Virus record (IMG/VR): IMGVR_UViG_3300020461_000009
Coordinates: 1-52,363 of that record
Strand: one strand, 5' to 3'
Length of the DNA stretch: 52,363 nt
Source of the DNA: a virus
Lineage: Duplodnaviria > Caudoviricetes
Both the position numbers and the translations under genes were made by a program. The notes beneath the pieces were generated by a model. The model did not search any database and had not been told where the DNA came from. It saw only the letters and a list, made by a program, of their open reading frames with translations. Of the stretch, positions 10,894 to 38,167 are shown in pieces (position 1 is the stretch's first letter; every line of letters begins with the position of its first letter).

Positions 10894-10918
10894 AGTTGAT
10901 AAAATATAAACTACTGTT

Positions 10919-10947
10919 ATAATACTCGATACTTACTTAGTAGTCAA
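10919..10947 (-). promoter_or_regulatory. Sigma70-type promoter
   Basis: TTGACT-N17-TATTAT. Confidence 0.6.
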
Positions 10948-10948
10948 C

Positions 10949-11728
10949 CTACCAAGTCTTTTTCCATGTATCTTTAATAGCTGTAGCCCAACTTGGTGCG
11001 ATTGACGTTCTGCCAATTTTATCTTGCAAGTCTTTATCTAAAACCTTAACAACGATTCCGTCAGTTGGATAGCGACTAAATATCAACGAGTCTTGCCATT
11101 GACTATGTAACTTCTTAACTCTATTTACAACATCTTTATCTATTTTAATGTAACCACAAACATGAAAACCCCACTTAACAAGTTGTTGTAGGTTAGAGAC
11201 TTCTGTACCCTTGGCATCAAATATTTGAAAAGCACAAAAAGACAAGCCCATGCCTGATGGTTGCTTCTTGCGTAAATGACCTGCTGCGAGTCTCTGTGAT
11301 CTAGCAGGTATAAGCCCTTTGCCATATAACTCTCCTCTAATATCAACAGTACCTTTTGCAATAATATGTTTCGGTAAATCCTCAATCATTCTCATGCAAT
11401 ATGTTTTATCTATACCCTTGCGAGTCCATGCTTTAACTAATAAACCATCTACATATCTAACAGCCATAGCGCAGCCATCTATCTTAGGCTCAACAATTAC
11501 AGGTGTATTTTTTGGTAAATAAGAATACCACTCTGCAAAAGGTAAAGTACCAAGTCCTGATAATACACAACCTTCTTCTACTTTCTTAAGTGCAGGGTGT
11601 TTTGGGTTAGATTTTATAAGTGCTTGTTTTATCGCATCAAATTGTTTGTCAGATATTATTGATCTACCTGCTCTATAAAGATCATTGTGATATAAAAATT
11701 CTTTTGCTAATTCGTCTGCGATTGACAT
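10949..11728 (-). CDS. NAD-dependent DNA ligase, adenylation (Ia + NTase) domain only
   Basis: HNDLY...ISDKQFD (Ia), EPKIDG active Lys, IRGEL, YPTDGIVVKV; ends at WATAIK before the OB fold. Confidence 0.85.
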   Translation of the reverse strand: MSIADELAKEFLYHNDLYRAGRSIISDKQFDAIKQALIKSNPKHPALKKVEEGCVLSGLGTLPFAEWYSYLPKNTPVIVEPKIDGCAMAVRYVDGLLVKAWTRKGIDKTYCMRMIEDLPKHIIAKGTVDIRGELYGKGLIPARSQRLAAGHLRKKQPSGMGLSFCAFQIFDAKGTEVSNLQQLVKWGFHVCGYIKIDKDVVNRVKKLHSQWQDSLIFSRYPTDGIVVKVLDKDLQDKIGRTSIAPSWATAIKDTWKKTW

Positions 11729-11767
11729 AGTTGTGATAAAGATAATAATACTATTATAGTATTAAAC

Positions 11768-12535
11768 CTATTGCTTTGCAAGTCTTTTTATCTCTTCTTT
11801 CCAATATTTGTAAAATCTATCATCTGCAAGTTTTTCTACTCTCATCTTAAATGTTGCCTGTGGCTTTTGTCTTGGAGTTGGTTTAAACATGAACAATGGT
11901 CGCAAAAATGATCTGTACTTACCATCACTCGGTGTTTGTTCTCTGTAGATACCTCTCCTGTATTTACTGCCATCACTTTTAAAAGCTATTACTCTTGCGT
12001 CTTGAATTTTTCCATTTTTTCTTGATCTAGGTGGTGTTACTTTATCTCTTGTTTGACCAAGTGCAATCATAGTATTTGAGTAAGTTGATTTTGTGACCCT
12101 ATTATTTTTTCCCATTTTTATTAATGGATTATCTCTTACTGCAAATGGATAATCACCTTGATTCATATAACTTCTATTTTTTAAAAATTGAGTAAATAAA
12201 GTTCCATATGCTTTTGTTGAACCTCCACCTATAGGGGGATAAAGATATTTGCCTGCTGGATTACCTTTGCCAGTTGTATCTTTAACTCCAACAAATAAAC
12301 TTAATCCACTTTGCTTTGTAAAAGTACTATTTAATGTAAAAAAAACAGCACTTTCAAAAGGTTTAAACCCATGTTTACCTAAATATGTTTGAGCTATTAA
12401 TCCATTTTTACCTTTTAATTCCTTTCCAAGTTTTGTTAAAGTTCTTTTTGCAGCAAATTCAGACTGACTTTTTTCATAAACATTAAGTCTTTTTTTGATT
12501 TTACTGAAGTCATATATTATGGCTGCACTTTTCAT
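11768..12535 (-). CDS. Basic protein, possibly tail-completion/neck-type family
   Basis: AAKRTLT...F...FTLNS pattern recalled from lambda-like phages; located away from the structural block. Confidence 0.4.
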   Translation of the reverse strand: MKSAAIIYDFSKIKKRLNVYEKSQSEFAAKRTLTKLGKELKGKNGLIAQTYLGKHGFKPFESAVFFTLNSTFTKQSGLSLFVGVKDTTGKGNPAGKYLYPPIGGGSTKAYGTLFTQFLKNRSYMNQGDYPFAVRDNPLIKMGKNNRVTKSTYSNTMIALGQTRDKVTPPRSRKNGKIQDARVIAFKSDGSKYRRGIYREQTPSDGKYRSFLRPLFMFKPTPRQKPQATFKMRVEKLADDRFYKYWKEEIKRLAKQ

Positions 12536-22840: not shown

Positions 22841-23002
22841 TTACCTACCTGGAAACAAAGCTTTTTCTAACGCATCAACTAATCTGTCATCAACTGTATT
22901 GTCAGTTTTTTTGACCATAGCTCGTACTATATCAAGTGCGAGTTTTTTTAATGCTTTTCCACGAAGAAAAGCAAAAATAATTGGCTCGATAATTTTTAGC
23001 AT
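22841..23002 (-). CDS. 53-aa amphipathic protein (TDNTVDD motif), possibly lysis-associated
   Basis: Translated by hand: MLKIIEPIIFAFLRGKALKKLALDIVRAMVKKTDNTVDDRLVDALEKALFPGR. Confidence 0.65.
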   Translation of the reverse strand: MLKIIEPIIFAFLRGKALKKLALDIVRAMVKKTDNTVDDRLVDALEKALFPGR

Positions 23003-23087
23003 AATTTTTTTTATGTTGCTAGATTAATACTAGCTCACTCCTCACACATAGAGCTATAGCCTCTTCTACTGGTCATAAAGGAAGAGG

Positions 23088-23318
23088 CTATCTTCTTGGC
23101 TTAATCTCTGCAACAGCAAGCTCCACTTCCTTTAGTCGATGAAATACCTCTTTCATGTCATCGTGCATATCATCTATTTTTGTTGTTAATAATTCTATAG
23201 CTGTTGTATTTCGCACAAGATCATCTCTCGATTGTCTACCCCTATAAGATATTGATCCCACAGATACAAAACACGCTGTAAGTAATGCCCCACCTGTTGC
23301 TGCTATTACTTCAATCAC
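23088..23318 (-). CDS. Membrane-anchored coiled-coil protein
   Basis: GTG start re-called; N-terminal hydrophobic helix followed by coiled coil. Confidence 0.6.
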   Translation of the reverse strand: MIEVIAATGGALLTACFVSVGSISYRGRQSRDDLVRNTTAIELLTTKIDDMHDDMKEVFHRLKEVELAVAEIKPRR

Positions 23319-23360
23319 TTTACGAGTCCTCGATCTATGTCTATTATACAGAAAAAGGCT

Positions 23361-23786
23361 ATGGAAAAAGAAAAAATAAAAAATATACCACAAAAAATTA
23401 AAGAAATAGACGATGATAAACCTGATTATCAGGAAAAAATCACGTTTTTAGTTTCTACAGTTGCACAAGGTTTTATATTAACTTGGTGTTTGCTTGTCTT
23501 GTCTTTAGGATATGTAAAGCTTCCTAATAAACTATTTGGTATGGACATACCAGACCAGCCAAGGGTTGACAGTACTTTTGCAGCAGGTCTTTTAGGTAAT
23601 ATTCTTGGAGGTCTAGGCATTTCTGTTAATGCTGCACAAGGTAATAAGAAGAAAAAGAAAGAAGAAGCAGAAAATGGTAATATTAGTAACTCTGCTGGTG
23701 GCGTACAAACTATAATAATAAAGCAGCCACTAGAAATCGTCACAACAAAACCTGACGTAATCAAAGTTGATCCCACAAAAAAATGA
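23361..23786 (+). CDS. Two-TM membrane protein (holin-like candidate)
   Basis: Two hydrophobic segments around DSTF, then a basic KKKKK tail. Confidence 0.6.
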   Translation: MEKEKIKNIPQKIKEIDDDKPDYQEKITFLVSTVAQGFILTWCLLVLSLGYVKLPNKLFGMDIPDQPRVDSTFAAGLLGNILGGLGISVNAAQGNKKKKKEEAENGNISNSAGGVQTIIIKQPLEIVTTKPDVIKVDPTKK

Positions 23787-24304
23787 AAAAACTACTTCCA
23801 TTTATTTTTGCAGTCGTAACTACTCCAACTTATGCCGAGATTACGGCTAAATATGTAACTTCAGCACAAATTTCCATAGATTCGCCTTATGTAATTACTA
23901 ATGCTGCACCATCAAGTTACAGTATTAGTGGAAGTAACATTACCACTTCTACAGGAACAGGAGATAGTGTTGTCACTAATGCAATTGGTGGATTGAATCT
24001 TGGAAGTTTTGGTAATACTGGTACGCCAAACGCAATACATACTAATAAGACAGTTACAAACGCTGGATCTGCTTTTTCTCTAAGCGAAAGTTATCAAGCT
24101 GGTGACGGGACACAAACTGCAATTACACCATCTAGCGGAATAGCAACTTTGCCTGTTCTTGGTGGACAAACTACAGTAATTTCTGGAGGTACTGCTGGAA
24201 ACTTAGCCTTAACCTCTGTATCATCAGGAATCCATACTTGTACGGCTGGTGGAAGTGGTACTAGCTGTATTGGATCTACTACTGTTAGTATAGAAATTGA
24301 CTAA
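23783..24304 (+). CDS. Secreted Ser/Thr/Gly-rich beta-strand protein
   Basis: Signal peptide MKKLLPFIFAVVTTPTYA; two Cys near the C terminus. Confidence 0.75.
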   Translation: MKKLLPFIFAVVTTPTYAEITAKYVTSAQISIDSPYVITNAAPSSYSISGSNITTSTGTGDSVVTNAIGGLNLGSFGNTGTPNAIHTNKTVTNAGSAFSLSESYQAGDGTQTAITPSSGIATLPVLGGQTTVISGGTAGNLALTSVSSGIHTCTAGGSGTSCIGSTTVSIEID

Positions 24305-24734
24305 ACTCTGGCTGCTGCTAGTATTTATATACCCGATCAAGGTTTTTGCTACCCCTGTAGTCCCTCAGTTCAGATCTGGGAGTTCTACGACTTCATCAAC
24401 TTCTGAATCTGTCATAAATGAAACTATAACCAGCTATCAGTATCGAACTGGTTATACATTTAGTGTTTCGGGTCACAATATAGAATCAACAGATATTAAT
24501 GGTTACATCAATCCAACACCTACAAGTGTTAATGAACAAACTGTTGGAGGAGTAAACTTTTCTTGGACTACTTTAGATGGCACAACAAATGCAAGGTGGA
24601 AGGTAGCAGTTCCCGGAAGTTCTTTCAGTTTAGTCGAAAGCGTGATGGCTCCCGGCCTCGATACAGTCACAAATATAACCCGGACTATAACTACGTCAAC
24701 TACCACAGAATCTACAAGTACGTTTGGGCAATAG
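24297..24734 (+). CDS. Secreted Thr/Ser-rich protein (PVVPxF motif)
   Basis: Signal peptide ending VFA; cyanophage-type conserved pattern. Confidence 0.75.
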   Translation: MTKLWLLLVFIYPIKVFATPVVPQFRSGSSTTSSTSESVINETITSYQYRTGYTFSVSGHNIESTDINGYINPTPTSVNEQTVGGVNFSWTTLDGTTNARWKVAVPGSSFSLVESVMAPGLDTVTNITRTITTSTTTESTSTFGQ

Positions 24735-25318
24735 CTGTAATTCTTTGCCCTGCAAGGGTTTTAGCGAATACAACAGTAGCGAGTCCACAAAGTCAATCGA
24801 CAGGGGTAGTAAATAATAATGCAACAATGATAACCCCTTCTAGTCATCCACAATTTAAAATGTCGCAAGGTATTATCTGCTCTTCTCCTAGCCTTACGTT
24901 TACACCCTATGTAACCGATGCTTGGTCATTTAACAGGCCAATAGAACAGGTGACGAGACAGAATATCTATGACGAAAATACTGGAGAAGTAAAATATGTG
25001 CAAGAAACTCCTCGCTTTGAAAAAGATAATTACAATTTAAACTATGGTTTTAGTCTTCAACTAAACATACCATTAGGAAAATCTCCAGCCCTTTGCCAAG
25101 AAGCGACTCAAGTAAATATAGATGCACAAAGATTACTAATAGCTAAAACACAAATGGAGATGGAATTATACAGACTTAAAATATGTGGTGAACAAGCTCG
25201 CCTCGGCGTACAGTTTGTTGGTAAGTATGCTATTAGTTGTGAAGGAATACAAGTTAACATACCTCCTAATCAAGTTCTGCCTCATGTACACAAAATTGAG
25301 GTAAAAGCACAAAAATAG
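24563..25318 (+). CDS. Secreted or outer-membrane-type protein with amphipathic beta strands and Cys-containing helical C terminus
   Basis: Signal-like segment ending RVLA (true start uncertain, downstream of 24563); YNLNYGFSLQLNIPL. Confidence 0.65.
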   Translation: MDYFRWHNKCKVEGSSSRKFFQFSRKRDGSRPRYSHKYNPDYNYVNYHRIYKYVWAIAVILCPARVLANTTVASPQSQSTGVVNNNATMITPSSHPQFKMSQGIICSSPSLTFTPYVTDAWSFNRPIEQVTRQNIYDENTGEVKYVQETPRFEKDNYNLNYGFSLQLNIPLGKSPALCQEATQVNIDAQRLLIAKTQMEMELYRLKICGEQARLGVQFVGKYAISCEGIQVNIPPNQVLPHVHKIEVKAQK

Positions 25319-25374
25319 CCCCTTCAGAATCGACTGTAAGGGGCTTGTAAAAAAGTCTGCTTATGTTTGTACCT
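25312..25374 (-). repeat. Inverted copy of the dispersed element; also a probable bidirectional terminator
   Basis: AGCCCCTT...AAGGGGCT stem between convergent genes; similar to 4736-4799. Confidence 0.6.
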
Positions 25375-26017
25375 ACGATTTTGGCTCTTTTTTCTTTGTC
25401 AGCTTTGTAAAGACTTGCTTTACTAAAGGTCGCACTAATTGTAAAACAAGCGGAGCAGAAGCACCAACCAGAGCCAAGCTAAACACCCCAACAAACTGAG
25501 GGGCAGAAGGTATGTACTGATCTTTGAAGGGTACGTCTTCATAAAGAGTAATGCACTCTTGTTTATTATCAGACAATTTATGACCTGTAACACGTTCAAG
25601 TTTTTTTTCGTTACGAAAATCACCTATTCGTTGGTCTTTTGAACTTGGACATTCTGGGATTACTATGTCATCTTTTTTTTCTTCCTCTGGTATTTTAGGG
25701 GTTTCAGTTTCTGGAATATTAGGTTCTAAATTATTTGTTGGTGGTGGCTCTTCTACAATTGTCATTTGGTTAGGGTTAAAAACAGGAGGTATAAAATTAG
25801 GAAAAGAAAAATCGCATATTGTATATACACCATTTGGGTCATCTAGTAATAAATTATGATTACCTGTGTTTTTTATATCTCGATGCTGATAAGTACAACC
25901 TGGTGTATTTATATTTAAATATTGTGTTAATACAGGAATATCTGGTGAATATGGCTCTGGAATGTATATTTCTGGAATATATATTTCTGGAACACTAATA
26001 TTAGGAATCTCCATCAT
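25373..26017 (-). CDS. Pro-rich, Cys-containing protein with C-terminal membrane anchor
   Basis: PEIYIPE repeats, PGC...C, C...C, C-terminal TM plus basic tail. Confidence 0.75.
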   Translation of the reverse strand: MMEIPNISVPEIYIPEIYIPEPYSPDIPVLTQYLNINTPGCTYQHRDIKNTGNHNLLLDDPNGVYTICDFSFPNFIPPVFNPNQMTIVEEPPPTNNLEPNIPETETPKIPEEEKKDDIVIPECPSSKDQRIGDFRNEKKLERVTGHKLSDNKQECITLYEDVPFKDQYIPSAPQFVGVFSLALVGASAPLVLQLVRPLVKQVFTKLTKKKEPKS

Positions 26018-26216
26018 CCCCAATAGAAATAGACCAACCTTTCTCTCCAAACTTGCCAACTTCTTTTATAACAGGTTTTCTTATTTTTTTATCTAATTCT
26101 TCGTGATATTTTTTTATATCATTATCAAGTTCTAAATTAAATTTTTGCATACGCATCCAATGAACTAATTTATCAATATAGTATTTAATTAATTTTTTTA
26201 TAAAACCAAATACCAT
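26001..26216 (-). CDS. Hypothetical protein
   Basis: 71-aa coupled ORF. Confidence 0.65.
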   Translation of the reverse strand: MVFGFIKKLIKYYIDKLVHWMRMQKFNLELDNDIKKYHEELDKKIRKPVIKEVGKFGEKGWSISIGDDGDS

Positions 26217-26365
26217 TAATCAAAAGCATCTCTAGGTAGATACACTTCTACATAAGAATTACATTTAGGACAAGATAAATTTGTGACCATAGAATATTCT
26301 GTGTTTTCTTCAGTATCGTGATCTCCACCCCAAATTAATTCAGTTTTACAATGCCAACAATTCAT
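26216..26365 (-). CDS. 49-aa Zn-ribbon protein (MNCWHC...CPKC)
   Basis: Not in ORF track; TAATG coupling at both ends; two CxxC motifs. Confidence 0.7.
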   Translation of the reverse strand: MNCWHCKTELIWGGDHDTEENTEYSMVTNLSCPKCNSYVEVYLPRDAFD

Positions 26366-26595
26366 TATTTTTTTGGATTTATTGGAAATGTTGGAATTTG
26401 TTTTGATGTTTCTGAGGGTAAAGTGTTACCTAATACGTCAGGCATAAGTCCTTTTACATTATCAAGCACTTGATTCATCATCTTTGCCTTAAATTGTTCT
26501 GAAGTTACATACTTAAATGTAAAAAAACCACCGCCCAAGATTCCCAAAACTAGGATCGTAGTTACGATAGTTAAAGCATCTAAAATTTTTCTCAT
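26365..26595 (-). CDS. Single-TM membrane protein
   Basis: N-terminal hydrophobic helix. Confidence 0.7.
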   Translation of the reverse strand: MRKILDALTIVTTILVLGILGGGFFTFKYVTSEQFKAKMMNQVLDNVKGLMPDVLGNTLPSETSKQIPTFPINPKK

Positions 26596-26725
26596 GTTAA
26601 AAGAGCAAATAGCACGAGCTACAGCATTAATGTCAGTAGTCGTTTTGTTACTTATTGTAGCTCTATCTCCTCTCTATGTCACAATGAGCTTAATGACAAG
26701 GCAAATGCAAGAAAAGCCTAACTAG
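26594..26725 (+). CDS. 43-aa hydrophobic peptide (LSPLYVTM motif)
   Basis: Translated by hand; divergent start shares the CATG with 26365-26595. Confidence 0.5.
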   Translation: MLKEQIARATALMSVVVLLLIVALSPLYVTMSLMTRQMQEKPN

Positions 26726-26939
26726 ATTTTTGTGCGTCAGAAGGTTTTAACTGTTCTTCTTGAGCTTTCGTAGATAATAATTGTGCCTGTGCATCTTTTA
26801 CACCAATAATTGCACCTTGATACCTATGTTCGTTTTGACACTCTAATTCATAAGACCTTTTTGCTTGTGCTTTACGATTTTGTATAGCAATAAGCTCCTG
26901 TTCGTATCTTTTTAAAAGATCATCTAGTGGATTGGTCAT
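26718..26939 (-). CDS. Small coiled-coil protein
   Basis: Start re-called at MTNPL (ATGA coupling). Confidence 0.7.
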   Translation of the reverse strand: MTNPLDDLLKRYEQELIAIQNRKAQAKRSYELECQNEHRYQGAIIGVKDAQAQLLSTKAQEEQLKPSDAQKSS

Positions 26940-27532
26940 GCTGCTACCTCCATTACTTGAATCCAAGAAGAAGTCCTAACATTATCACCACCATCTGCGT
27001 CATTATGATATTGATTTACATAAAGAGTTCTTGTTGATCCACTTATGTTGTATTGAGCTAGTCGGTATGTTAAAGCACTTGTACTGCCAGCAGTATCAAG
27101 ATAAGAAAAACTTTGAGGAACAATTGAATAAGTACCATGTTGACGAACAGCAGTCATAGCACCTTCTCTAGTGCCTACTATTGCACCATTTGCTGCTGTT
27201 ATTGAAGCAAAAGAACCAGACCCAGTTTGTTTTTGCAAAATAACTGGAATATTATTTACATCATTTGATGAAGTAAAATGTGTATTAGCTATAATTAAAA
27301 TTTTATTTGAGGCATTGCTTGGTGTGATAGTAACTTGAATATTATGTCCTGTCCAAAGTGCTTCTGAAGCTGTACTTTGTGAGGCAACATCATTTCTACC
27401 GCCCTGCACAACTTGAAGAATTTTACCAGCACCACCATTCGGAAAGGAACATTTACCAGCCGAATCTAAAGTAATAGCATCACTAGACGCTCCAGTATGC
27501 CTAATACTATTAACAATTAACCTACTGCTCAT
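26936..27532 (-). CDS. Tail fibre tip paralog, class C (module 2)
   Basis: MSSRLIVNSIR N terminus; GKILQV...MEVAA domain. Confidence 0.75.
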   Translation of the reverse strand: MSSRLIVNSIRHTGASSDAITLDSAGKCSFPNGGAGKILQVVQGGRNDVASQSTASEALWTGHNIQVTITPSNASNKILIIANTHFTSSNDVNNIPVILQKQTGSGSFASITAANGAIVGTREGAMTAVRQHGTYSIVPQSFSYLDTAGSTSALTYRLAQYNISGSTRTLYVNQYHNDADGGDNVRTSSWIQVMEVAA

Positions 27533-27870
27533 GGCTTGGGATACTTGTCTTTAGTAGCTTTAATTGCAGTAGCCCAAGTCCCTGTTGTATCTAACTTACC
27601 AGCAACCATATCTTTATAAAGCATATCTAACTGATCTCCTATCGTTGGATAGATAGTATCTGTTGTCCCTGCTGCACCTGTTCTCTGTGACTTATACAAA
27701 ATCGCTGCTGCTGCATCGTCTAACGATTTTCGGGCTGCTGCTATTTTTGTATCATCTAGTGTTACTTTTGATCCGTCAGCAGCAAACGCTCCAGCAGTAT
27801 CGTCTATAGAAACAACAGGTTTTGTTTCTGATTTGTAAGCCTCATAAATAGCTTCGTGGTCTAACGCCAT
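27529..27870 (-). CDS. Tail fibre assembly chaperone-like protein
   Basis: YP.IGDQLDML...W...IK..K.KYPKP motif. Confidence 0.65.
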   Translation of the reverse strand: MALDHEAIYEAYKSETKPVVSIDDTAGAFAADGSKVTLDDTKIAAARKSLDDAAAAILYKSQRTGAAGTTDTIYPTIGDQLDMLYKDMVAGKLDTTGTWATAIKATKDKYPKP

Positions 27871-27910
27871 AATTAAAAAGTCCTTTTTACTAAATTATAT
27901 AGGATGGACA

Positions 27911-28558
27911 TTAAGCTGCCACCTCCATGACTGTTATTGTTGATTGAGTTCTTATGTCATAAGCATAGTTATCATCTGAGTGAGAACGATTCAAATATAC
28001 AGTTTTTGTACCATTTGCACTATGACCCAATCTGACAGAATATGTTATTTGACTTGTCCCACCAGCAGTATCTAAATACTGACCACCAGTTGTATTATGA
28101 GTTCCTACCCATCTTACGTCCCCACCAGATGTTCTTGGTTTACGATTACCAGCAGCGGTTCCAGCAGCTCCAGTAAGTAATGAACCCGCTTTATAAAAAA
28201 CCCAATTCACTTCATTATCATTATTCAATCCCATACTGACATGAGCCGTAAGAAAAATCTTATTGTTTGCATTTGATGGTGTGATATTAACTGTTAGAGC
28301 ATCTGCACTAAGAGTTCCAGTAGCAAGACTTTCTGAAAAAGTATCAGTTCTTGTTGTTGAAACAACTTGTAAAATTTTACCTCCCCCAGCTTCAGCAAAT
28401 GATAAATTTCCAGAGCCATCCGTTTTTAAAAAAGTATCAGCACTCCCGTCAGACTGCGGTAGCTTTAGTTCAACTTCACTTGAAGAAGGGTTTGATGTTG
28501 GTACAGCTAATGAAACCGCATTACCACCAGAATGTACGAGTTTAATTTTTCCTGTCAT
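27911..28558 (-). CDS. Tail fibre tip paralog, class B (module 2)
   Basis: MTGKIKLVHSGGN N terminus; GKILQV...MEVAA. Confidence 0.75.
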   Translation of the reverse strand: MTGKIKLVHSGGNAVSLAVPTSNPSSSEVELKLPQSDGSADTFLKTDGSGNLSFAEAGGGKILQVVSTTRTDTFSESLATGTLSADALTVNITPSNANNKIFLTAHVSMGLNNDNEVNWVFYKAGSLLTGAAGTAAGNRKPRTSGGDVRWVGTHNTTGGQYLDTAGGTSQITYSVRLGHSANGTKTVYLNRSHSDDNYAYDIRTQSTITVMEVAA

Positions 28559-29163
28559 GCTGATACCTCCATTGCTGTGATAGATGATACTCCATGAAAC
28601 CAATTATTATCCCAAGTTCTATTAAGATACATTGTTCCAGAGTGCATATGCCATTTAATACCATATGTAATCGCACTTGTTGTATTTGGAGAATCTAAAA
28701 ACTCGAAATTGGCTGTTAAGTATAAAGATGAACCACCTATAGCAAAAGTGCCGTCTGCATCATCATCTACAACACTTGCATTACCTATTTCAGTTGTAGT
28801 CCCACCTATTGTTCTCTTTAGTCTAAAGTTTCCTTCAGCACCTGTGTAAGCCAAGTACAAACTACCTTTATATAAAATTTTATTACTTGTTGCGGATGGT
28901 GTAATACTAACAGTTAGTCCTGATATATCTGAAAAACTACCCGAGCTAGTACTTGCAGTATCATTTTTAAAAGTTTGTTTTACTTGTAAAATTTTACCTC
29001 CAACACCACTTGCTAATTTTGCAGCAGTAATCGCACCACTTGCTATTTTTCCACTTGCTACAGAGTTTGCTGCAAGCATATCTGCATCTACTATTCCATC
29101 AGGCAACCCACCAACTGCAAGTCCTGTTATTACTCCTGTGTTTCCGTTGATTGATACTGGCAT
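28555..29163 (-). CDS. Tail fibre tip paralog, class A (module 2)
   Basis: MPVSINGNTGVI N terminus; GKILQV...MEVSA. Confidence 0.75.
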   Translation of the reverse strand: MPVSINGNTGVITGLAVGGLPDGIVDADMLAANSVASGKIASGAITAAKLASGVGGKILQVKQTFKNDTASTSSGSFSDISGLTVSITPSATSNKILYKGSLYLAYTGAEGNFRLKRTIGGTTTEIGNASVVDDDADGTFAIGGSSLYLTANFEFLDSPNTTSAITYGIKWHMHSGTMYLNRTWDNNWFHGVSSITAMEVSA

Positions 29164-29459
29164 TAGACTACTGTGAACACCGATCCAGAAGGTATAGTTA
29201 AAGTATAAGACCCCATTGAAAAAGGGCCAGCTACCATACCATTTTTATTTGTACCAACTGTAATATTTCCTGCTGCTGCTATTGGGTTTTGAAATATGGA
29301 ATCTGTCTCACCACCAGCAGATATTGCATTGGTAGATGCAGCAGTTATTCTTCCCTGGGCATCAACTGTAATAGCTGGTATTGCAGTAGCAGAACCATAA
29401 CTTCCTGCACTTACAGAAGTATCAGCTAATCCTTGAGCTTGTGCTTTAGTTAATCCCAT
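29163..29459 (-). CDS. Short fibre adapter-like protein (module 2)
   Basis: AGSYG...ITVDAQGRITAA fibre repeat; C-terminal TIPSGSVFTVV matches the end of 31202-33253. Confidence 0.65.
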   Translation of the reverse strand: MGLTKAQAQGLADTSVSAGSYGSATAIPAITVDAQGRITAASTNAISAGGETDSIFQNPIAAAGNITVGTNKNGMVAGPFSMGSYTLTIPSGSVFTVV

Positions 29460-30037
29460 TATCCTGCCACCTCCAAAAGAGTGAGAGATGAAGGTACTCT
29501 TCCTCTTGATACATCAGTTGAACCTTGTTCATCTCTTCCAATATAACTCGTAAATCCACCAGAATAACCTTGTTTCCATTGTATTTTATATGTATGTGAA
29601 CCAGCACCACTTGGAATATCTAAAGCACTAAAGGAAGCAGTACTTGCTCCGTAGTTATAATAACCAGTATATCCACCAGCACTTGCACGAGTTACACTAC
29701 CATCTGCATCACCGAGCCAAGGATAATTTGTACTTCCGTCTACATCTACTCTTACTAATCTAAACCAAGTGCTATATGCAGCAGATGATCCAAAAAAGAC
29801 ATTTCCTAAACAAAGAACTTTACTACCAGCAGAAGTAGTTATTGCTTGTGATAAACCAGTCACATCTACAAAAGTAGCAGATTGTGTAGATTGTGTGTCT
29901 GTTTTAGCTACTTGAACAACTTGAAGAATTTTACCAACACCGCCATTTGGAAAGGCTGGTTTGCCAGAGTTATCAAATGTTATCGCATCTGCTGAAGCAG
30001 AAGTGGATCGTATTGCGTTTGTTATTAACCTACTCAT
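29459..30037 (-). CDS. Tail fibre tip paralog, class C (module 1)
   Basis: MSRLITNAIR N terminus; GKILQV...LEVAG. Confidence 0.75.
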   Translation of the reverse strand: MSRLITNAIRSTSASADAITFDNSGKPAFPNGGVGKILQVVQVAKTDTQSTQSATFVDVTGLSQAITTSAGSKVLCLGNVFFGSSAAYSTWFRLVRVDVDGSTNYPWLGDADGSVTRASAGGYTGYYNYGASTASFSALDIPSGAGSHTYKIQWKQGYSGGFTSYIGRDEQGSTDVSRGRVPSSLTLLEVAG

Positions 30038-30639
30038 GCTGCCACCTCCATAGCTGTTATTGTTGAAACACAATTTGTCATGTAAGTGTAATTATCTAAC
30101 GTTGGAGAACTATTAATACCAATAATGTAACTAGAAGAATACGGACTATGTGCTTGTAATTTATAAGTTGTTGCAGACGTTGTATTTGGAGAATCTAAAA
30201 GCTCTTGAGTTACACTCCTTCCATCAACATAAGATGACATATAACTACCAAAAGAACCTCTATTTTGACTTGTAGCACTTGGGTTTTGATCTCCTATAAA
30301 AATTGTGCTATCACTACCTCTTAGTAAACGCATAGACCAATATTGATTATTTGTAAAAGCACTAACACAATATCTAATTAGAACTTTATTAGAAGATGAG
30401 CTAGGTGTAATAGTAACACTCATACCTGCAATATCAACTAAAGTTGTCGATTGTATAGTTGTTCTATCTTTTTTAACTGTTTGTATAACTTGCAAAATTT
30501 TACCTGCATTTGCAGTTGTAGCTATTGTTCCATCTGCATCACCAGGTAATGTAAGAGTTCTGTCTGCTGCTGGATTAGAACTTGGTGCAGCTAATATAAC
30601 TCCATTACCACCACTATGTAATAATTTAATCTGACTCAT
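30034..30639 (-). CDS. Tail fibre tip paralog, class B (module 1)
   Basis: MSQIKLLHSGGN N terminus; GKILQV...MEVAA. Confidence 0.75.
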   Translation of the reverse strand: MSQIKLLHSGGNGVILAAPSSNPAADRTLTLPGDADGTIATTANAGKILQVIQTVKKDRTTIQSTTLVDIAGMSVTITPSSSSNKVLIRYCVSAFTNNQYWSMRLLRGSDSTIFIGDQNPSATSQNRGSFGSYMSSYVDGRSVTQELLDSPNTTSATTYKLQAHSPYSSSYIIGINSSPTLDNYTYMTNCVSTITAMEVAA

Positions 30640-31190
30640 GCTGCTACCTCCATAACTGTAATTTGACTAATAGGATTCTGACCTGATGAACTACTAGGGT
30701 TAGAGTTAGCTGTATTCACACCATAAACATTCCCACCACCATTATGTGTAGTAATTTGTATTTTATATGTTGTAGCACTTGTTGTTGATGGGGAGTCTAA
30801 AAATGTTCCAGTATTTTGATAAGATGGCACAGAACCAACTTGGTCATTTCGAGTGTATATAAAATTACTACATCTTGTTCGAGAACTTGCATCATCACCT
30901 CGATAAATGTCTGTAGATCCTCTCATCAAATGAAGAAAAGCTCTATAACCACCATTAGGCCCACCAACATTGACGTTATAAACAATTAAGATTTTATTTG
31001 ATGAAGATGAAGGAGTTATAGCAACACTTAAACCAGTTATATCGTATCTATCACCACCACTACTAGAAGAAGTAAAAGTTTGAGAATCACTTTTAAGTGC
31101 TTGTACTACTTGCAGAATTTTACCTGTAGATATACCTGATAAACTTGAGGCTGATATAACTCCAGTAGATCCGTTTAATACTATTGGCAT
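30636..31190 (-). CDS. Tail fibre tip paralog, class A (module 1)
   Basis: MPIVLNGSTGVI N terminus; GKILQV...MEVAA. Confidence 0.75.
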   Translation of the reverse strand: MPIVLNGSTGVISASSLSGISTGKILQVVQALKSDSQTFTSSSSGGDRYDITGLSVAITPSSSSNKILIVYNVNVGGPNGGYRAFLHLMRGSTDIYRGDDASSRTRCSNFIYTRNDQVGSVPSYQNTGTFLDSPSTTSATTYKIQITTHNGGGNVYGVNTANSNPSSSSGQNPISQITVMEVAA

Positions 31191-31201
31191 AATTTTACCT
31201 C

Positions 31202-33253
31202 CTAGACAATAACATAACGTGAACCTGACGGAATGGTAACTGTTACCCCACTTGCTACTATTATATCTCCTGCACTTATACCTGACTTGTTTGTGGTCAT
31301 AGTATAATTATTTGAAATTGTTAACGAGTTTTCTGTAACGCAACCATCAGCTTTTTGTGATGAAACTCCAGTTAATGCTGACCCATCAATAGCTGGCAAC
31401 GCTCCAGTAAGTGCGGAAGAAGGTAAATTAGTTAAACTTGCACCTGACCCACTAAATGTAGTTGCTGTTAATAATCCTGTAGAAGAGTTAAATGTAAGAT
31501 TTGATCCTGACTTTAAGCCTAAATCTCCTGTAGCTGCGGTGGTAAACAGAGGAAAACAAGTAGTATCAGAACTTTCATCAGCAATCGTAGAGGTAGTCGC
31601 ATTGCCAACAGCAACTTGAGTTCCCATATTAATGATGAAATATGTAGATCCACTAGGAGGAGCAGAATCAAAAATTATATCTGTACCACTTACAACATAT
31701 CCATCTGTCATATCCCCTTGACCAGACCCATCATTGGGTTGCTGCATAACACCATTGATAGATACTCTTAATATCTCTGCATTAACTGGTGTTACTGCTG
31801 TACTTGTGCCTTTCGTGACTAGCTTAAATCTATAAGCAGATCCGTTGAATGTAGCTGATCCACCACCAGTTCCAGAAGATGATGCAATATCTAATAAATC
31901 TGCTGTTCCCGAAGTAGCTGCTGATCCACCAATCTCTCCCCAAGCACTACCATCATATCCTTCAAATTCTGATGTCTGACTATTGAATCTGAACATCCCG
32001 GCAGATGGAGAGCCGGGTCTTTGTGCTGTAGTTCCAGCAGCAACATCAATCGCACCTGTTCCTGTCATTGAAATATCACCACTTACACTAAAGTTTCCAC
32101 TAACAGTAAGACTAGAAAGTAAAGTTCCTGTAGCTGTAGCTGAGTTTGTCTGAACAGCATTACCCATCAATGAGTGACTTGAGCATTGATAATGGATAAC
32201 CATTGGAGTGTTATCTGCTATGACAATCTGCACATATGCACCACTTTGACCTGCTGTTCCATTTACAGTTACGTTTGTTGTATAAGCTGTAGTTTTATTT
32301 GACTCAAGATAAAAACGTAAAGGATGACCAGAATTACTTGAATGTGATTGGTCAAACTTATAAGTACGGCCAGGTGTAAGAGTTAAAAATGGTGCTTCTT
32401 TGCCATCAATTAAATAACCATTTCCAGACCCACTTCCGTTATATCTATGCGCTGCTGTTTTGCTTGCAACAGTAACAGTTAGAGTTTTTACAGATCCAGT
32501 ATATGTAGCCTGAGTAGAAGCAAATCCTCTAATGTTTCCATCATCGGTGAGAGTTAACGTACCAGTAAAATTAGGATCTGCATTTTGACCAGGTGCTACC
32601 CAACTAAGAACTCCAGAAGCGTTACTTGATAAAACATATCCACTTACAGAAGAGTCAGCAGAAGGTAAAGTCCAAACAACATTAGATGAAACTGTTGCAG
32701 CAGATTTAAAACCAACATAATGAGAAGAGTCAGCATCTAAATATCTAACCTCTTTTTGACCAGAAACAGATAGATGTTCACTACTTGTCCAAGAGTCTGT
32801 TGCATTTACCCAATTAAATGTTTTATCAGACGCACCTTTTAGAGTAAGTCCACCTCCGTCAGCAGTTGTATCAGATGGTGTTGAGACTTTTCCAAGAGTT
32901 ATATTTTTATCCTCTACATCAAGATTGGTAGTGTTGATTGTAGTTGTTGTACCCCCAACTGTTAAGTCTCCTACTATATTTACAAGACCAGCAGAACTGA
33001 TAGACATTCTGCCTGTTCCACCTGTGCTAAAGGTTAAAGTATCTGATCCTCCACTAATTCCTGTATTTGGATCAGAATTAAAACTAAATGCAGGGCTACC
33101 AGCAGATCCATCAGGTGCTTTACTTAATAAATTTGAATAACTTATCTTTTTATTTTTAGCAGAACCTGTGGCACTTTGATCTATTATCGGCAAAGTATCT
33201 GTACTGGCTGGTGCAGTAAGTTCTGTAAATTCTGATATTTTGCGGTTTGTCAT
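31202..33253 (-). CDS. Long tail fibre protein with internal cupredoxin-like domain
   Basis: KISE N terminus, Gly/Ser/Thr-rich fibre motifs, GHPL...YQCSSHSLMG, GTTAQRP...FEGY repeat, C-terminal TIPSGSRYVIV. Confidence 0.8.
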   Translation of the reverse strand: MTNRKISEFTELTAPASTDTLPIIDQSATGSAKNKKISYSNLLSKAPDGSAGSPAFSFNSDPNTGISGGSDTLTFSTGGTGRMSISSAGLVNIVGDLTVGGTTTTINTTNLDVEDKNITLGKVSTPSDTTADGGGLTLKGASDKTFNWVNATDSWTSSEHLSVSGQKEVRYLDADSSHYVGFKSAATVSSNVVWTLPSADSSVSGYVLSSNASGVLSWVAPGQNADPNFTGTLTLTDDGNIRGFASTQATYTGSVKTLTVTVASKTAAHRYNGSGSGNGYLIDGKEAPFLTLTPGRTYKFDQSHSSNSGHPLRFYLESNKTTAYTTNVTVNGTAGQSGAYVQIVIADNTPMVIHYQCSSHSLMGNAVQTNSATATGTLLSSLTVSGNFSVSGDISMTGTGAIDVAAGTTAQRPGSPSAGMFRFNSQTSEFEGYDGSAWGEIGGSAATSGTADLLDIASSSGTGGGSATFNGSAYRFKLVTKGTSTAVTPVNAEILRVSINGVMQQPNDGSGQGDMTDGYVVSGTDIIFDSAPPSGSTYFIINMGTQVAVGNATTSTIADESSDTTCFPLFTTAATGDLGLKSGSNLTFNSSTGLLTATTFSGSGASLTNLPSSALTGALPAIDGSALTGVSSQKADGCVTENSLTISNNYTMTTNKSGISAGDIIVASGVTVTIPSGSRYVIV

Positions 33254-33255
33254 AA

Positions 33256-34221
33256 TTAAAACTTGATTATGTACATAAGAGCTACGTTTTTAACACGAAC
33301 CTCAGTCCCACCACCACTACTTGCAATTGTGTGTGAGTGAGTTGCATCCATACTAAAGCTACCGCATTGTGCTTCTCCTCCAGCATTACCATACAATCTT
33401 GCGTTTCTATTTCCTCCTTTAGTAAAGACTCCACTTGCTGAACCATCCATTCTATAAGATTGTGATATTGCTTGAACATCACCAGTAAGAGATGTGGAAT
33501 CAGTTGTGTGCGTATGATTCTTGTTTTGATCTGTTTGTGTCGAACCAAAAACTCTACTTGCATCTACTCCAGCACTATTATCCCAACCTCTAACAAACTG
33601 ACCTCTTAAGTCAGGTAGGTTGAAGGTAGAAGATCCATCCCCTGTTCCATGTGTTGTTGATAAAATTGAAAATAATGAAGCATATGTAGATCTACTAATA
33701 GCACTACCATTACATTCTAAAAACCCAGAAGGAGGAGTAGAAGCTCCAAAAGTTAATATAGTTCCTACTGGAATACCTGATGCTAAACCACCCCAAGCTG
33801 ATCCGTTATAACCCTCAAAACTCGTTGTTGTACTATTGAATCTTATTTGGCCTGTAGCTGCTGTTGGTCTTTGAGCGGTTGTACCACTCGGCAATTTTAA
33901 TGCACCTGTACCACCCATCACTATGTCACCAGCAGAATCTACTGTACCTGTGAAATCTGGAGATGCTTTTGTTGCTAATCCGAAATTATTAGTATGTGCA
34001 GCATCTGTAAGACTTCCTAAAACCAACCAGCCATTATTTGCAGAGTTTCTTATTTTAAGTAAATTTGTTGAGGTATCAGCCCAAATTTTATAAGCAACAG
34101 TTGTAGTGGGATCTGATGATCCACTATTTAAAGATTGTATATCTCCTAAAACAGCATTAAGCTCAGTTCTAAAAGTAGAACCAACTTGATTAGCTAAATT
34201 ATAATCTGCTGTATTACTCAC
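33256..34221 (-). CDS. Tail fibre protein with phage tail collar domain
   Basis: PVGTI...GFLECNGSAISRSTYASLF...FNLPDLRGQFVRG. Confidence 0.85.
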   Translation of the reverse strand: MSNTADYNLANQVGSTFRTELNAVLGDIQSLNSGSSDPTTTVAYKIWADTSTNLLKIRNSANNGWLVLGSLTDAAHTNNFGLATKASPDFTGTVDSAGDIVMGGTGALKLPSGTTAQRPTAATGQIRFNSTTTSFEGYNGSAWGGLASGIPVGTILTFGASTPPSGFLECNGSAISRSTYASLFSILSTTHGTGDGSSTFNLPDLRGQFVRGWDNSAGVDASRVFGSTQTDQNKNHTHTTDSTSLTGDVQAISQSYRMDGSASGVFTKGGNRNARLYGNAGGEAQCGSFSMDATHSHTIASSGGGTEVRVKNVALMYIIKF

Positions 34222-37523: not shown

Positions 37524-38167
37524 ACTTCTACCTGCTCGTTTTCAATATTTGCTGATACAACCACCGATCCAACCATTGTACGACCATATATCACAGGAAC
37601 GGCAACACCTGCTCTACTCGTGTTTTGTATGCCACTAAAATTAAATGATCTTCTTGGATCTTGATTTTCTTCGGGAATAGTCTCGACAGGTGTAAGTAAA
37701 GTAGATACTCCATTTAAAACCATTGAAGCACCAATAACAGATGTTATTGTTCCCACTTTTGTTAAAAATGCACCTCCCGCAGTAAATCCTGTCATAGTAG
37801 TCCCTGCTGCGATTTTACCTCCAGCACCAATCGTTCCAAACATACCAGCACCAGGGAAAAGAAATGAAATACCTATCAATGCTGCCCCAATCAATATTTG
37901 CCTACCAGCACCACCTCCAGCACCTGCTACAACAGGAACAATTTTTATGTCATTCTGCCCTGTAGGATGATGTAATTCCTCATCAGTTAGTGTCCAATCA
38001 TTATCGACTATTATTTTGTAATATCTATCAGCCATATGACTTTCTAGCTTTGGAAAATTAACAACTAAAAACCTAATAGCTTGTGCAGCATTATTAACCT
38101 CTGCCTCAAAAGTTTTCTGACCTAAAAACTTTGCGAGTTCTCCGTATAGCTTAATTTTTCTTAGCAT
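37520..38167 (-). CDS. gpI: Tail assembly protein I
   Basis: KLYGELAKFLG, IVPVVAG, VPVIYG. Confidence 0.88.
   Translation of the reverse strand: MLRKIKLYGELAKFLGQKTFEAEVNNAAQAIRFLVVNFPKLESHMADRYYKIIVDNDWTLTDEELHHPTGQNDIKIVPVVAGAGGGAGRQILIGAALIGISFLFPGAGMFGTIGAGGKIAAGTTMTGFTAGGAFLTKVGTITSVIGASMVLNGVSTLLTPVETIPEENQDPRRSFNFSGIQNTSRAGVAVPVIYGRTMVGSVVVSANIENEQVEV

Follow-up and report, generated by a model that had tools for sequence, protein, structure and literature searches.

A gene cluster encoding five hypothetical proteins and a plasmid stability protein was described in 15 of 16 T4-like cyanomyoviruses (Sullivan et al. 2010, PMC3037559). In the available part of that paper the cluster is given no function and mobility is proposed, a proposal repeated in PMC9602691. 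The window analysed here (52,363 nucleotides) is a whole virus record and represents a complete 52.4-kb lambda-like phage genome (CheckV completeness 100%). The cluster T4-GC 218/219/234/235/237 is the same gene set as the cassette found in the window, with the same order and convergent layout. The S-SSM7 annotation and our own HMMs paired g03 with GC218, g04 with GC237, g06 with GC235, g07 with GC234 and g10 with the 'plasmid stability' gene, and g05 is presumably T4-GC 219. Compared with the cyanomyovirus cluster, g03 heads the plus-strand operon in the window siphovirus, and g01, g02, g08, g09 and g11 are extra. The sequence-only reading of this DNA had called the set uncharacterised, which is right in that no function has been assigned, but it overlooked the publication of this cluster in 2010.

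The ORF list and the sequence confirmed 12 small genes in alternating orientation at positions 22841–26966, where about a dozen had been noted. The features are as follows:

g01, 22841–23002, minus strand: amphipathic, net basic protein of 53 aa; phrog_2738/402 (PHROG E 5e-16)
g02, 23088–23315, minus strand: accessory protein, TM segment at the N-terminus, helical tail at the C-terminus; phrog_26178
g03, 23337–23786, plus strand: core protein, DUF6450 / T4-GC 218; Pfam PF20048 (25.9 bits, cut-off 25)
g04, 23783–24304, plus strand: core protein, T4-GC 237, phrog_564 (PHROG E 2e-35)
g05, 24297–24734, plus strand: core protein, DUF6322, phrog_650; Pfam PF19847 (86.5 bits, cut-off 30.6)
g06, 24596–25318, plus strand: core protein, T4-GC 235, phrog_848/1755 (PHROG E 2e-64)
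Hairpin, 25317–25345, no strand: GC-rich, between the convergent g06 and g07 (MFE -22.3 kcal/mol, z -3.1); likely a two-way terminator
g07, 25373–26017, minus strand: core protein, T4-GC 234, phrog_570 (PHROG E 1e-39)
g08, 26001–26216, minus strand: accessory charged helical protein of 71 aa; phrog_6464 (PHROG E 1e-4); 10 loci
g09, 26216–26365, minus strand: accessory Zn ribbon of 49 aa; weak Pfam Zn-ribbon matches under the cut-offs; 36 loci
g10, 26365–26595, minus strand: core 'plasmid stability protein' of 76 aa; phrog_568 (PHROG E 7e-12)
g11, 26594–26725, plus strand: single-TM peptide of 43 aa; 61 loci by our own HMM
g12, 26718–26966, minus strand: coiled-coil protein of 73–82 aa, with the cassette on one side and the first tail-fibre paralog on the other

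The core consists of six genes: g03 (DUF6450), the DUF6322 paralogs g04 and g05, g06, g07 and g10. Membrane or export signals were present on nearly all 12 cassette genes and on all six core proteins; hydrophobic segments were called with a Kyte-Doolittle script, and cleavage sites were judged by eye. None of the cassette proteins matched a holin, endolysin or spanin family, or any other family that has been characterised.

The consensus and hydrophobicity of g03 showed an acidic/basic N-terminus and one strong TM segment; a second segment, conserved and rich in Gly/Ala, is weakly hydrophobic, and the tail is Lys-rich. It had been read as a 2-TM protein; one segment is strong, but the second is weak. 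Our g03 HMM matched in all five annotated myovirus loci (E 2e-25 to 3e-36) and matched PSSP7_043 (E 1e-28). By its architecture, g03 is a holin-like candidate. The proteins g04 and g05 carry N-terminal Sec signal peptides ending in TYA↓E and VFA↓T, with Ser and Thr at 54 of 173 and 48 of 145 residues, respectively; g04 is Ser/Thr/Gly-rich. They are paralogs (hhalign probability 96%, E 2.6e-9), and g04 falls in Atlas clusters where 96–98% of members bear PF19847. g04 is predicted to be all-beta, with only strands beyond the signal-peptide helix in its AF2 model (mean pLDDT 56). In the g05 alignment, the mature N-terminus PVVPxF is conserved and a C-terminal F-x-Q is invariant; PSSP7_044 is a g05 homolog (E 1.4e-11).

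Signal peptides had been claimed for three proteins at 23783–25318, which holds for g04 and g05 and needs qualifying for g06, where the hydrophobic segment lies behind an extension of ~46 aa. This short segment ends in a cleavage-like AxA-type motif, VLA↓N. The nearest in-frame ATG, GTG or TTG is 46 codons upstream of it, within the 3' end of g05, and the basic extension is encoded in the -1 frame there. In 160 of 164 loci, 40–59 codons separate the nearest upstream canonical g06 start from the hydrophobic segment, and the g05/g06 overlap is retained between lineages of only ~30% identity. Beyond the segment, alignments of g06 showed a domain of ~180 aa in which four Cys and one Asp are invariant, with P-H-x-H at the C-terminus. 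This domain is a candidate periplasmic enzyme or membrane-anchored effector. A tblastn search with g06 found 385 phage records.

On the minus strand, g07 has I-P-x-I repeats at the N-terminus and two Cys-pair modules with a Pro-rich linker; a hydrophobic anchor and then a basic tail make up its C-terminus. With 28 Pro and 4 Cys, it is the Pro/Cys-rich C-anchored protein noticed before. C41, C68 and K200 are invariant in the alignment, and conservation of C123 and C155 reaches 90% or more. An N-out/C-in topology is predicted, but g07 has no signal peptide that would account for exporting its N-terminal 190 aa. In g10 the N-terminal TM segment contains a GGG motif, and the C-terminal tail is short. 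Its HMM matched all five annotated myovirus loci, and no family match was found in Pfam or NCBIfam. The hydrophobicity script gave a TM segment in g02, g10 and g11, in line with the single-TM proteins noted earlier.

The arrangement is not due to chance, as IMG/VR has the same genes in the same order at 80 loci of the sipho type and 80 of the myo type. The order is g01- g03+ g04+ g05+ g06+ g07- g10- g11+ in the sipho type and g04+ g05+ g06+ g07- g10- g03- in the myo type, the full set being present in 52 of 84 myo loci. The two versions share only ~30–35% identity. In siphoviruses the cassette lies at the end of the late structural genes; g07 to g10 are on the late strand, after the tail-fibre genes, in the window phage and MED4-117. 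Its occurrence in cyanosiphoviruses is new here, as is a reduced version of it in T7-like cyanopodoviruses, P-SSP7 among them. P-SSP7 carries homologs of g03, g05, g06 and g01 and a g07-like gene between its tail-fibre genes and terS, and the T7 holin gene 17.5 sits at the equivalent place. The unannotated g01 homolog of P-SSP7 directly follows the g06 homolog (E 8e-14, own HMM). g01 goes with the cassette in siphoviruses and P-SSP7 (58 of 83 loci by tblastn). The co-occurrence check proposed with the earlier reading showed that the set stays together in siphoviruses and in myoviruses and is reduced in podoviruses. The cassette is common to most viruses of ocean cyanobacteria. Its family is phage-restricted: a search of 185,579 species genomes gave only 13 loci, and almost all of these lie on contigs from SAGs or MAGs. 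In many myoviruses it lies among photosynthesis genes, sometimes with PetE or PTOX inserted in it. Contigs of four RNA libraries from two studies cover cassette relatives.

The motif [CTA]TAAATA was found ~30–50 nt upstream of g04 in 64 of 68 myo loci and of g03 in 60 of 66, compared with 4.5% of random windows and 58 of 532 (11%) other ORFs. The late promoter of cyanomyoviruses is reported as NATAAATA in the available part of PMC2984593. Both myovirus operons bear a T4-type late promoter motif, which is a new observation. The late-type motif also precedes non-lysis genes, such as psbA and hsp20.

Searches of 70 ORFs with Pfam and PHROGs found no muralytic domain but NlpC/P60 in the tail protein gpK (38151–38858), and Pfam at E<=1 gave no further one among the 44 unassigned ORFs. 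Because the genome is 100% complete by CheckV, the absence of an endolysin holds genome-wide at HMM sensitivity, which bears out the earlier remark that only gpK has such a domain. A canonical endolysin, named then as evidence against the reading, was looked for by HMM and none was found. No conserved lipoprotein was found in the cassette or in the window genome. A Phage_lysozyme gene was present in none of seven cassette-bearing genomes, and six muralytic Pfam families gave one match in five such genomes, inside a 1003-aa ORF. According to the available part of Kongari et al. 2018, 20 of 91 spanin-less phages infect Prochlorococcus or Synechococcus.

S-PM2 lacks the cassette and has a PF00959 lysozyme (S-PM2p157) with the lipoprotein genes p160 and p161 adjoining. 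This region is probably the functional counterpart in cyanomyoviruses without the cassette; it is built of recognisable parts (PF00959 lysozyme, lipobox proteins) that are absent from the window. Among seven lysin-bearing Kyanoviridae (cyanomyovirus) genomes, five had no cassette gene, S-CAM7 had only a 20-bit fragment, and DSL-LC03 alone had both, its cassette directly adjoining two endolysin genes. In Synechococcus-named records, g06, a lysin and a T4-type polymerase occurred in 301, 63 and 377, respectively. The distribution of the cassette is complementary to that of the canonical lysozyme gene, although the lysin-bearing genomes were chosen by lysin and may be phylogenetically clustered, so that the cases behind the complementarity are not independent. 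Syn5, P60 and P-SS2 had neither the cassette nor any of four lysin families tested, indicating that other unknown lysis systems exist and that an absent endolysin alone is weak evidence.

We put at about 0.5 the probability that the cassette is a non-canonical, late-expressed lysis (host-envelope disruption) module of marine picocyanobacterial phages, because it occupies the place expected for lysis genes and relatives with an ordinary lysozyme do not have it. It would be made late in infection and replace the missing holin-endolysin-spanin set. The roles of the individual proteins are inferred. At the cytoplasmic membrane, g03, with two hydrophobic segments and a charged tail, could act with g10, g11 and g02 in a timing or permeabilising, holin-like step. 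g06 would be exported via its short hydrophobic segment, be kept oxidised by two disulfides and act on the wall as the effector, possibly as a peptidoglycan hydrolase of a new, metal-dependent kind that uses the invariant Asp and P-H-x-H. g07, with its C-terminal TM anchor and a Pro-rich, disulfide-bonded periplasmic part, might cross the periplasm in concert with g04 and g05, the secreted paralogs, and disrupt the outer membrane in spanin fashion. Neither structure nor complex prediction was informative: the confidence of the AF2 models is low (pLDDT 62 and 56), and they therefore show no catalytic fold. They neither favour nor contradict the surface structure with an outer-membrane pore that had been suggested earlier for superinfection exclusion. 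The co-existence of cassette and endolysins in DSL-LC03 speaks against the lysis reading, as do the lack of matches to characterised families, the missing lipoprotein partner and g07 signal peptide, the late-type motif before non-lysis genes and the location among photosynthesis genes in many myoviruses. The suggestion of a lysis or spanin-like machine, made before, gains support from the late position, the late promoter motifs and the lysozyme complementarity, but a canonical spanin was rejected, as neither cassette nor genome encodes a conserved lipoprotein.

Like the lysis sets of lambda, T7 and T4, the cassette is expressed late if its promoter motifs are a guide, lies after tail-fibre genes or beside terminase, combines a small 2-TM protein with a charged tail and periplasm-facing proteins with conserved Cys, and is complementary in distribution with the canonical lysozyme. 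Two envelope proteins in overlapping reading frames recall Rz/Rz1. Unlike these sets, it has no sequence or fold match to holin, endolysin or spanin families and no outer-membrane lipoprotein; its candidate inner-membrane spanning protein, g07, is anchored at the C-terminus, and the two secreted beta-rich paralogs g04 and g05 have no counterpart. Judged by eye, the 2-TM g03 and the exported g06, with its short, weakly hydrophobic segment, presumably resemble the pinholin/SAR-endolysin pair of phage 21, from which g06 differs in that it has no known muralytic domain, carries a cleavage-type site (AxA) and is extended by 45–55 aa at the N-terminus.

Since all products are envelope-bound, the exported g04, g05 and g06 might instead coat or block envelope receptors, or membrane proteins might block DNA entry by later phages or keep progeny off cell debris. 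Such superinfection exclusion or receptor masking seems unlikely to us. A family limited to phages of one host group but found in three morphotypes is what a host-envelope-specific function predicts, the cassette is dispensable in some lineages, and cyanomyoviruses lack the r genes and exclusion genes of T4 according to the available part of PMC2984593, which leaves a function without an assigned gene. However, known exclusion systems are single early proteins, whereas the cassette has six genes with late-type promoters; PADLOC gave no family match save a weak Zn-ribbon match of the accessory g09, and the endolysin adjacency in DSL-LC03 and the holin-like position in P-SSP7 would be left unexplained. 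So would the lysozyme complementarity, which is equally unaccounted for if the exported proteins alter transport, photosynthetic electron flow or membrane organisation without lysis. We regard this auxiliary-like remodelling of envelope or thylakoid as just as doubtful as exclusion. It would fit the specificity for phages of cyanobacteria, the RNA-library contigs, the PetE and PTOX genes inside the cassette at some loci and the hli, psbA, psbD, petF and heme oxygenase genes beside it in several myoviruses. Unlike typical auxiliary genes, the cassette has no host homolog; it is retained in the compact P-SSP7 genome between tail-fibre and terminase genes, and the window phage and MED4-117 have it, while their scanned or annotated ORFs include no gene for photosynthesis.

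A role as maturation factors or minor virion parts tied to the neighbouring fibre genes is improbable to a greater degree. The cassette adjoins tail-fibre genes in the window phage, MED4-117, S-SSM7 and P-SSP7 and has late promoters, but Sec signal peptides and TM anchors place its products outside the cytoplasm, where tailed-phage virions are assembled. The set is also common to three unrelated tail types and lies among replication genes in Syn9 and P-TIM40; the Syn9 and S-RSM4 records carry no structural label on these genes, while S-RSM4 labels a neighbour structural. The least credible account, to which we assign very little weight, is the 2010 proposal of a selfish cassette with mobility or maintenance through the 'plasmid stability protein', the original hypothesis in the available text of PMC3037559. 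Its position does vary between myovirus genomes. However, g10 is an N-terminally anchored membrane peptide of 76 aa with no plasmid partition or stability match in Pfam or NCBIfam, no recombinase or repeats were seen, and the low sipho/myo identity points to long vertical retention rather than recent hopping.

The remaining genes are accessory or of narrow distribution. The longest g02 ORF reaches 23393, the PHROG match covers residues 27–96 of this long ORF, and the start is probably the GTG at 23315; g02 was found in 21 loci, all of close relatives. g12 gave no family match in Pfam or PHROGs, occurs in 10 loci of close relatives and may belong to the fibre genes. The start codons of g11 and g10 overlap back to back (CATG). 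g09 is the Zn ribbon recognised earlier, with a CxxC...CxxC pattern, and it shares 83% nucleotide identity over 135 nt with Pelagibacter phage HTVC027P.

The sequence-only reading had proposed a set of envelope-directed genes, and every feature that it listed was recovered in the ORF list, the sequence and the hydrophobicity profiles. Twelve small genes (g01 to g12) occupy 22841-26966 with strands, in order, of - - + + + + - - - - + -, and six of them (g03, g04, g05, g06, g07 and g10) form the core. Topologies were assigned with a hydrophobicity script and by inspection, not with SignalP. T4-GC numbers were taken from the S-SSM7 record and mapped with our own HMMs. The genes discussed here are the following:

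23337-23786 (+), g03: DUF6450 (PF20048) protein, GC218; two hydrophobic segments, one strong and one weak, and a Lys-rich tail
23783-24304 (+), g04: paralog of g05, GC237; classical N-terminal signal peptide with AxA-type site, Ser/Thr/Gly-rich
24297-24734 (+), g05: DUF6322 (PF19847) protein, presumably GC219; signal peptide and composition as in g04
24596-25318 (+), g06: GC235
25373-26017 (-), g07: GC234; 4 Cys, 28 Pro, hydrophobic anchor at the C-terminus with a basic tail after it
26216-26365 (-), g09: CxxC...CxxC ribbon
26365-26595 (-), g10: single-TM protein, annotated elsewhere as 'plasmid stability protein'
26594-26725 (+), g11: single-TM protein, as is g02

Co-occurrence across cyanophages, suggested as a check, was borne out: tblastn with g06 returned 385 phage records, nearly all of them T4-like cyanomyoviruses. 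Syn9 has the same layout, with gp167, gp166 and gp165 convergent on gp164, gp163, gp162 ('plasmid stability') and gp161. All six core genes were matched by our HMMs in 5/5 annotated myovirus loci, with E values from 1e-11 to 1e-95, and both the clustering and the convergence of g04-g05-g06 on g07/g10 were those of the known cyanophage cassette (168 loci; Syn9 layout). By homology and gene order, the window cassette is the cyanophage T4-GC 218/219/234/235/237 plus 'plasmid stability' cassette. Sullivan et al. 2010 (PMC3037559) place the cluster in 15/16 cyanomyoviruses, with S-PM2 as the sole exception, and propose a mobile cassette without assigning a function; the mobility idea is repeated in PMC9602691. 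No functional study of DUF6322/DUF6450, of the cassette or of cyanophage lysis genes was found in the literature searched, and the P-HM2 paper contained nothing on the cassette genes.

Family assignments differed in strength. g05 scored well above the PF19847 gathering cut-off (86.5 vs 30.6 bits), and g03 was marginally above that of PF20048 (25.9 vs 25 bits); the DUF6450 homologs of Syn9, P-SSP7, MED4-117 and DSL-LC03 reached 64-111 bits. g04 had no direct match to the PF19847 model; its Atlas clusters, 96-98% of whose members have PF19847, relate it to DUF6322, and g04 and g05 were paralogs by hhalign (probability 96%, E 2.6e-9). A plasmid stability or partition role for g10 found no support in Pfam or NCBIfam, where no family matched this 76-aa N-terminally anchored peptide. 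Its name rests on the phrog_568 label and older annotation, and the present analysis corrects a misleading label that has stood in cyanophage annotations since 2010.

For the comparison of loci, 80 sipho-type and 80 myo-type loci were drawn from IMG/VR, one HMM was built per gene, and architectures were counted over 168 loci. The siphovirus order was g01- [g02-] g03+ g04+ g05+ g06+ g07- [g08-/g09-] g10- g11+, and the myovirus order was g04+ g05+ g06+ g07- g10- g03-. The full myovirus set was present in 52/84 myo loci, contig ends cutting most of the rest, and an additional membrane protein (phrog_605) was present in 53 of the myo loci. Occasional inserts in myoviruses were PetE, PTOX, SNase and a secreted HEGWH-motif protein. 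The last of these (phrog_591, 224 aa, HExxH-type motif) lies inside the cassette at L142:8939-9613 and in 3 other myovirus loci; it had no Pfam match and could, from its motif, be a metallopeptidase. Only 13 loci were found among 185,579 species (one genome each), nearly all on SAG/MAG contigs, and the family is, on this distribution, phage-restricted. A g06 homolog with 30% identity was located on a 188-kb contig (L175) of a flavobacterial isolate assembly (Nonlabens xiamenensis strain 1Q3), which may be contamination or a phage contig because 188 kb matches cyanomyovirus genome size.

In the g06 alignments (A1 and A2), four Cys and one Asp were invariant, and the C-terminus carried a P-H-x-H motif. 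In 160/164 loci (those with the upstream region not cut off), the nearest in-frame ATG/GTG/TTG lay 40-59 codons before the hydrophobic segment, and a closer start occurred in none. This start is in the -1 frame relative to g05, within its 3' end; the g05/g06 overlap is kept in siphoviruses, myoviruses (Syn9 gp166/gp165) and P-SSP7. The resulting N-terminal extension is basic, with many Asn, His and Tyr residues, partly because Thr-rich g05 codons are read out of frame. Four related contigs (L012, L015, L017 and L019) had a stop 54-84 nt upstream of the hydrophobic segment with g06 intact and no ATG/GTG/TTG between the two; a near-cognate start or coupling to g05 termination are possibilities for initiation there. 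No classical slippery heptamer for a programmed -1 frameshift from g05 into g06 was present at the junction. In g07 (alignment A4), C41 and C68 were invariant and C123 and C155 were at least 90% conserved, the four Cys making up two modules. Its basic tail, which extends up to ~60 residues beyond the anchor in myoviruses, argues under the positive-inside rule for an N-out/C-in topology despite the lack of a signal peptide.

The statement that no endolysin is recognisable besides gpK held, since NlpC/P60 in gpK was the only muralytic domain found when the window ORFs were searched with Pfam and PHROGs and the 44 unassigned ORFs at E<=1. Muralytic domains were not detected in the cassette proteins with Pfam, PHROGs, NCBIfam or profile searches of PDB sequences. 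Six muralytic Pfam families searched against Syn9, MED4-213, S-SSM7, S-RSM4 and MED4-117 gave a single match, M23 within a 1003-aa ORF. The lack of recognisable lysins in cassette-bearing genomes is the first line of evidence pointing to lysis. Cyanophages are conspicuous among 'spanin-less' phages (PMC6139136), Prochlorococcus/Synechococcus phages making up 20 of the 91 listed by Kongari et al. 2018, and the T4 r genes are reported to be missing from cyanophages (PMC2984593).

The second line is a cassette distribution complementary to that of canonical (PF00959-type) lysozyme. A search confirmed that the cassette is absent from S-PM2, which has a PF00959 lysozyme annotated 'putative lysin', an adjoining 'lipoprotein precursor' and a further lipobox ORF, all with S-PM2-specific T4-GC numbers. 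The S-PM2-type lysin was found in 63 Synechococcus-phage records; rough counts for Synechococcus-named records were 301 for g06, 63 for the lysin and 377 for the T4-type polymerase. Seven lysin-bearing Kyanoviridae genomes were tested, which were selected by lysin and are possibly related to one another. g06, g07, DUF6322 and DUF6450 had no match in S-PM2, ACG-2014f, S-CREM1, S-SRM01 and S-CRM01, S-CAM7 retained only a 20-bit cassette fragment with a stop, and DSL-LC03 had both lysin and cassette, the cassette directly adjoining two endolysin genes. In this freshwater cyanomyovirus, the cassette and the two endolysin genes flank a gene annotated as 'autotransporter outer membrane beta-barrel domain-containing protein' (L195, record 10873-12522). 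Neither cassette nor lysin system was found in Syn5, P60 and P-SS2.

The T7-like podovirus P-SSP7, the third line of evidence, carries a reduced cassette flanked by its tail-fibre genes and by terS, at what we take to be the place of holin gene 17.5 in the T7 gene order:

PSSP7_042: g07-like by architecture only, missed by the HMM
PSSP7_043: g03 homolog (E 1e-28)
PSSP7_044: g05 homolog (E 1.4e-11)
PSSP7_045: g06 homolog (E 1e-21), overlapping the g05 homolog
unannotated ORF after PSSP7_045: g01 homolog

A query with the P-SSP7 protein matched 446 records, other cyanopodoviruses included.

Late expression was suggested by promoter-like motifs. [CTA]TAAATA was found ~30-50 nt upstream of g04 in 64/68 myovirus loci and upstream of g03 in 60/66; the background rate was 4.5% in random windows and 11% (58/532) before other ORFs. 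The same motif precedes baseplate gp9, and also hsp20 and psbA, in annotated loci. The cyanomyovirus late promoter is reported as NATAAATA (PMC2984593), and many of the motif matches were CTAAATA, one position away from it. In the window phage and MED4-117, g07-g10 extend the late strand directly past the tail-fibre genes. A sigma-70-type promoter scan gave 23 sites vs 20.3 expected, and no k-mer common to intergenic regions pointed to a phage promoter. Contigs of four RNA libraries from two studies cover relatives of the cassette, with no information on timing, strand or level and with DNA carry-over possible. In the palindrome CATG (26593-26596), the g10 (-) and g11 (+) starts overlap back to back, so neither gene has intergenic room for a promoter.

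Structure prediction did not identify a fold. AF2 models of g06 (93 sequences, pLDDT 62, pTM 0.34) and g04 (63 sequences, pLDDT 56, pTM 0.28) were too weak for their folds to be named. VIA-align of these low-confidence models against 48,161 PDB representatives gave nothing usable, the best Z being 4.1 for g06, confined to the long helix, and 3.3 for g04. Complex prediction for mature g04+g05+g06 was likewise of no use, with ipSAE of 0.04 and 0.01. Profile searches of PDB sequences with alignments A2, A3 and A4 returned nothing below E 0.1, and in the ESM Atlas, where neither protein has a model, g04 matched only its own DUF6322 clusters and g06 had no usable match. The A2 profile matched 614 of 1.84 billion representatives, all unannotated, and twelve of those that run well past the matched region contained no extra Pfam domain. 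Longer DUF6322 proteins numbered 13, mostly doubled DUF6322, one singleton also having PF13385. PADLOC and NCBIfam gave nothing for the core genes.

g03 has the architecture of a holin, being small with TM segment(s) and a charged C-terminal tail, which is an architectural criterion only; no cassette protein matched a holin-annotated family in Pfam or PHROGs. A pattern scan for a lipobox Cys lipoprotein, as expected of Rz/Rz1 spanins, gave one unconvincing antisense candidate genome-wide and none in the cassette. A lipobox ORF embedded in g07 was rejected as a spanin lipoprotein, being kept in 1/159 homologs, and the Cys of the g06 hydrophobic segment is not conserved. g06 could adopt an N-in/C-out type II topology if uncleaved, and its low-confidence model contains a 40-residue helix. 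The type II inner-membrane subunit of Rz/Rz1 is N-in/C-out and has a coiled coil in the periplasm, whereas g07 is anchored the opposite way.

The cassette is genuine and conserved, its products are directed to the envelope, and it had already been published as a cluster with no assigned function. The reading with the best support, to which we assign a probability of roughly one half, is a late lysis module of non-canonical type. g03 would be its holin-like part, g06 its wall effector, and g07 with g04/g05 the part that would span the periplasm and break the outer membrane. Superinfection exclusion, which the sequence-only reading had offered through a surface structure as the alternative to an unrecognised lysis module, is possible, and so are envelope or thylakoid remodelling and help in assembly. 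A larger form of the lysis-module reading is tentative and rather doubtful. Under it, most T4-like, many sipho- and some T7-like Prochlorococcus/Synechococcus phages would use the cassette as a complete and novel kind of lysis system, with g06 the founder of a new family of Sec-exported, disulfide-bonded, metal-dependent wall hydrolases, g07 and g04/g05 a lipoprotein-free outer-membrane breaker, and g03 a new holin family. If so, this is where the lysis genes of the ocean's most abundant phages, long missing, would lie.

Much of the ocean's carbon is moved by viral lysis of Prochlorococcus and Synechococcus, and to our knowledge the genes with which their main phages lyse them have yet to be identified. 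If the cassette is a lysis module, it would make burst timing and host-envelope specificity testable through a defined set of genes and would provide late-infection markers for metatranscriptomes, and a new family of wall-degrading enzymes might follow.

The window is a complete virus record (52,363 bp, rated 100% complete by CheckV, GC ~35%) and was annotated with PHROGs and Pfam as a lambda-like siphovirus. Its structural genes comprise terS/terL, a portal of the lambda family, a capsid fused to a protease, tube, tape measure and gpM/L/K/I/J, after which come several tail-fibre genes in succession; the left arm encodes helicases, a VapE-type primase-helicase, ligase, Mom, RecE/RecT and a Kyanoviridae Gp96 homolog. 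The host is very probably Prochlorococcus, because the cassette DNA has its nearest relatives in three Prochlorococcus MED4 siphoviruses (MED4-117, MED4-184 and P-HS2) and in contigs of Prochlorococcus single-cell genomes.

Other features were observed in the same DNA. A GC-rich hairpin (folding z -3.1) lies between the convergent g06 and g07; together with the 3' end of g07 (about 25311-25384) it shares 84% identity over 74 nt with the T7-like cyanophage P-SSP2, where the match falls within a 'predicted protein'. The g09 region (26239-26373) matched Pelagibacter phage HTVC027P at 83% nucleotide identity over 135 nt, and records of other marine phages and of SAG-associated viruses matched less strongly; g09 is, by DNA similarity, a tiny gene common to phages of unrelated hosts. 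The 826-aa ORF at 45203-47683 combines Hva1_TUDOR, prohead protease S78 and HK97-type capsid domains, and a Mom-like DNA modification gene (Pfam Mom, E 1e-35) is present at 8264-8959 in this cyanosiphovirus. At 26936-31190, downstream of the gpJ gene and larger tail-fibre genes (31202-34221), a C-terminal module of tail fibres (phrog_6942/29834) recurs as five small paralogs in tandem (184-230 aa), which look like a set of alternative receptor-binding tips.
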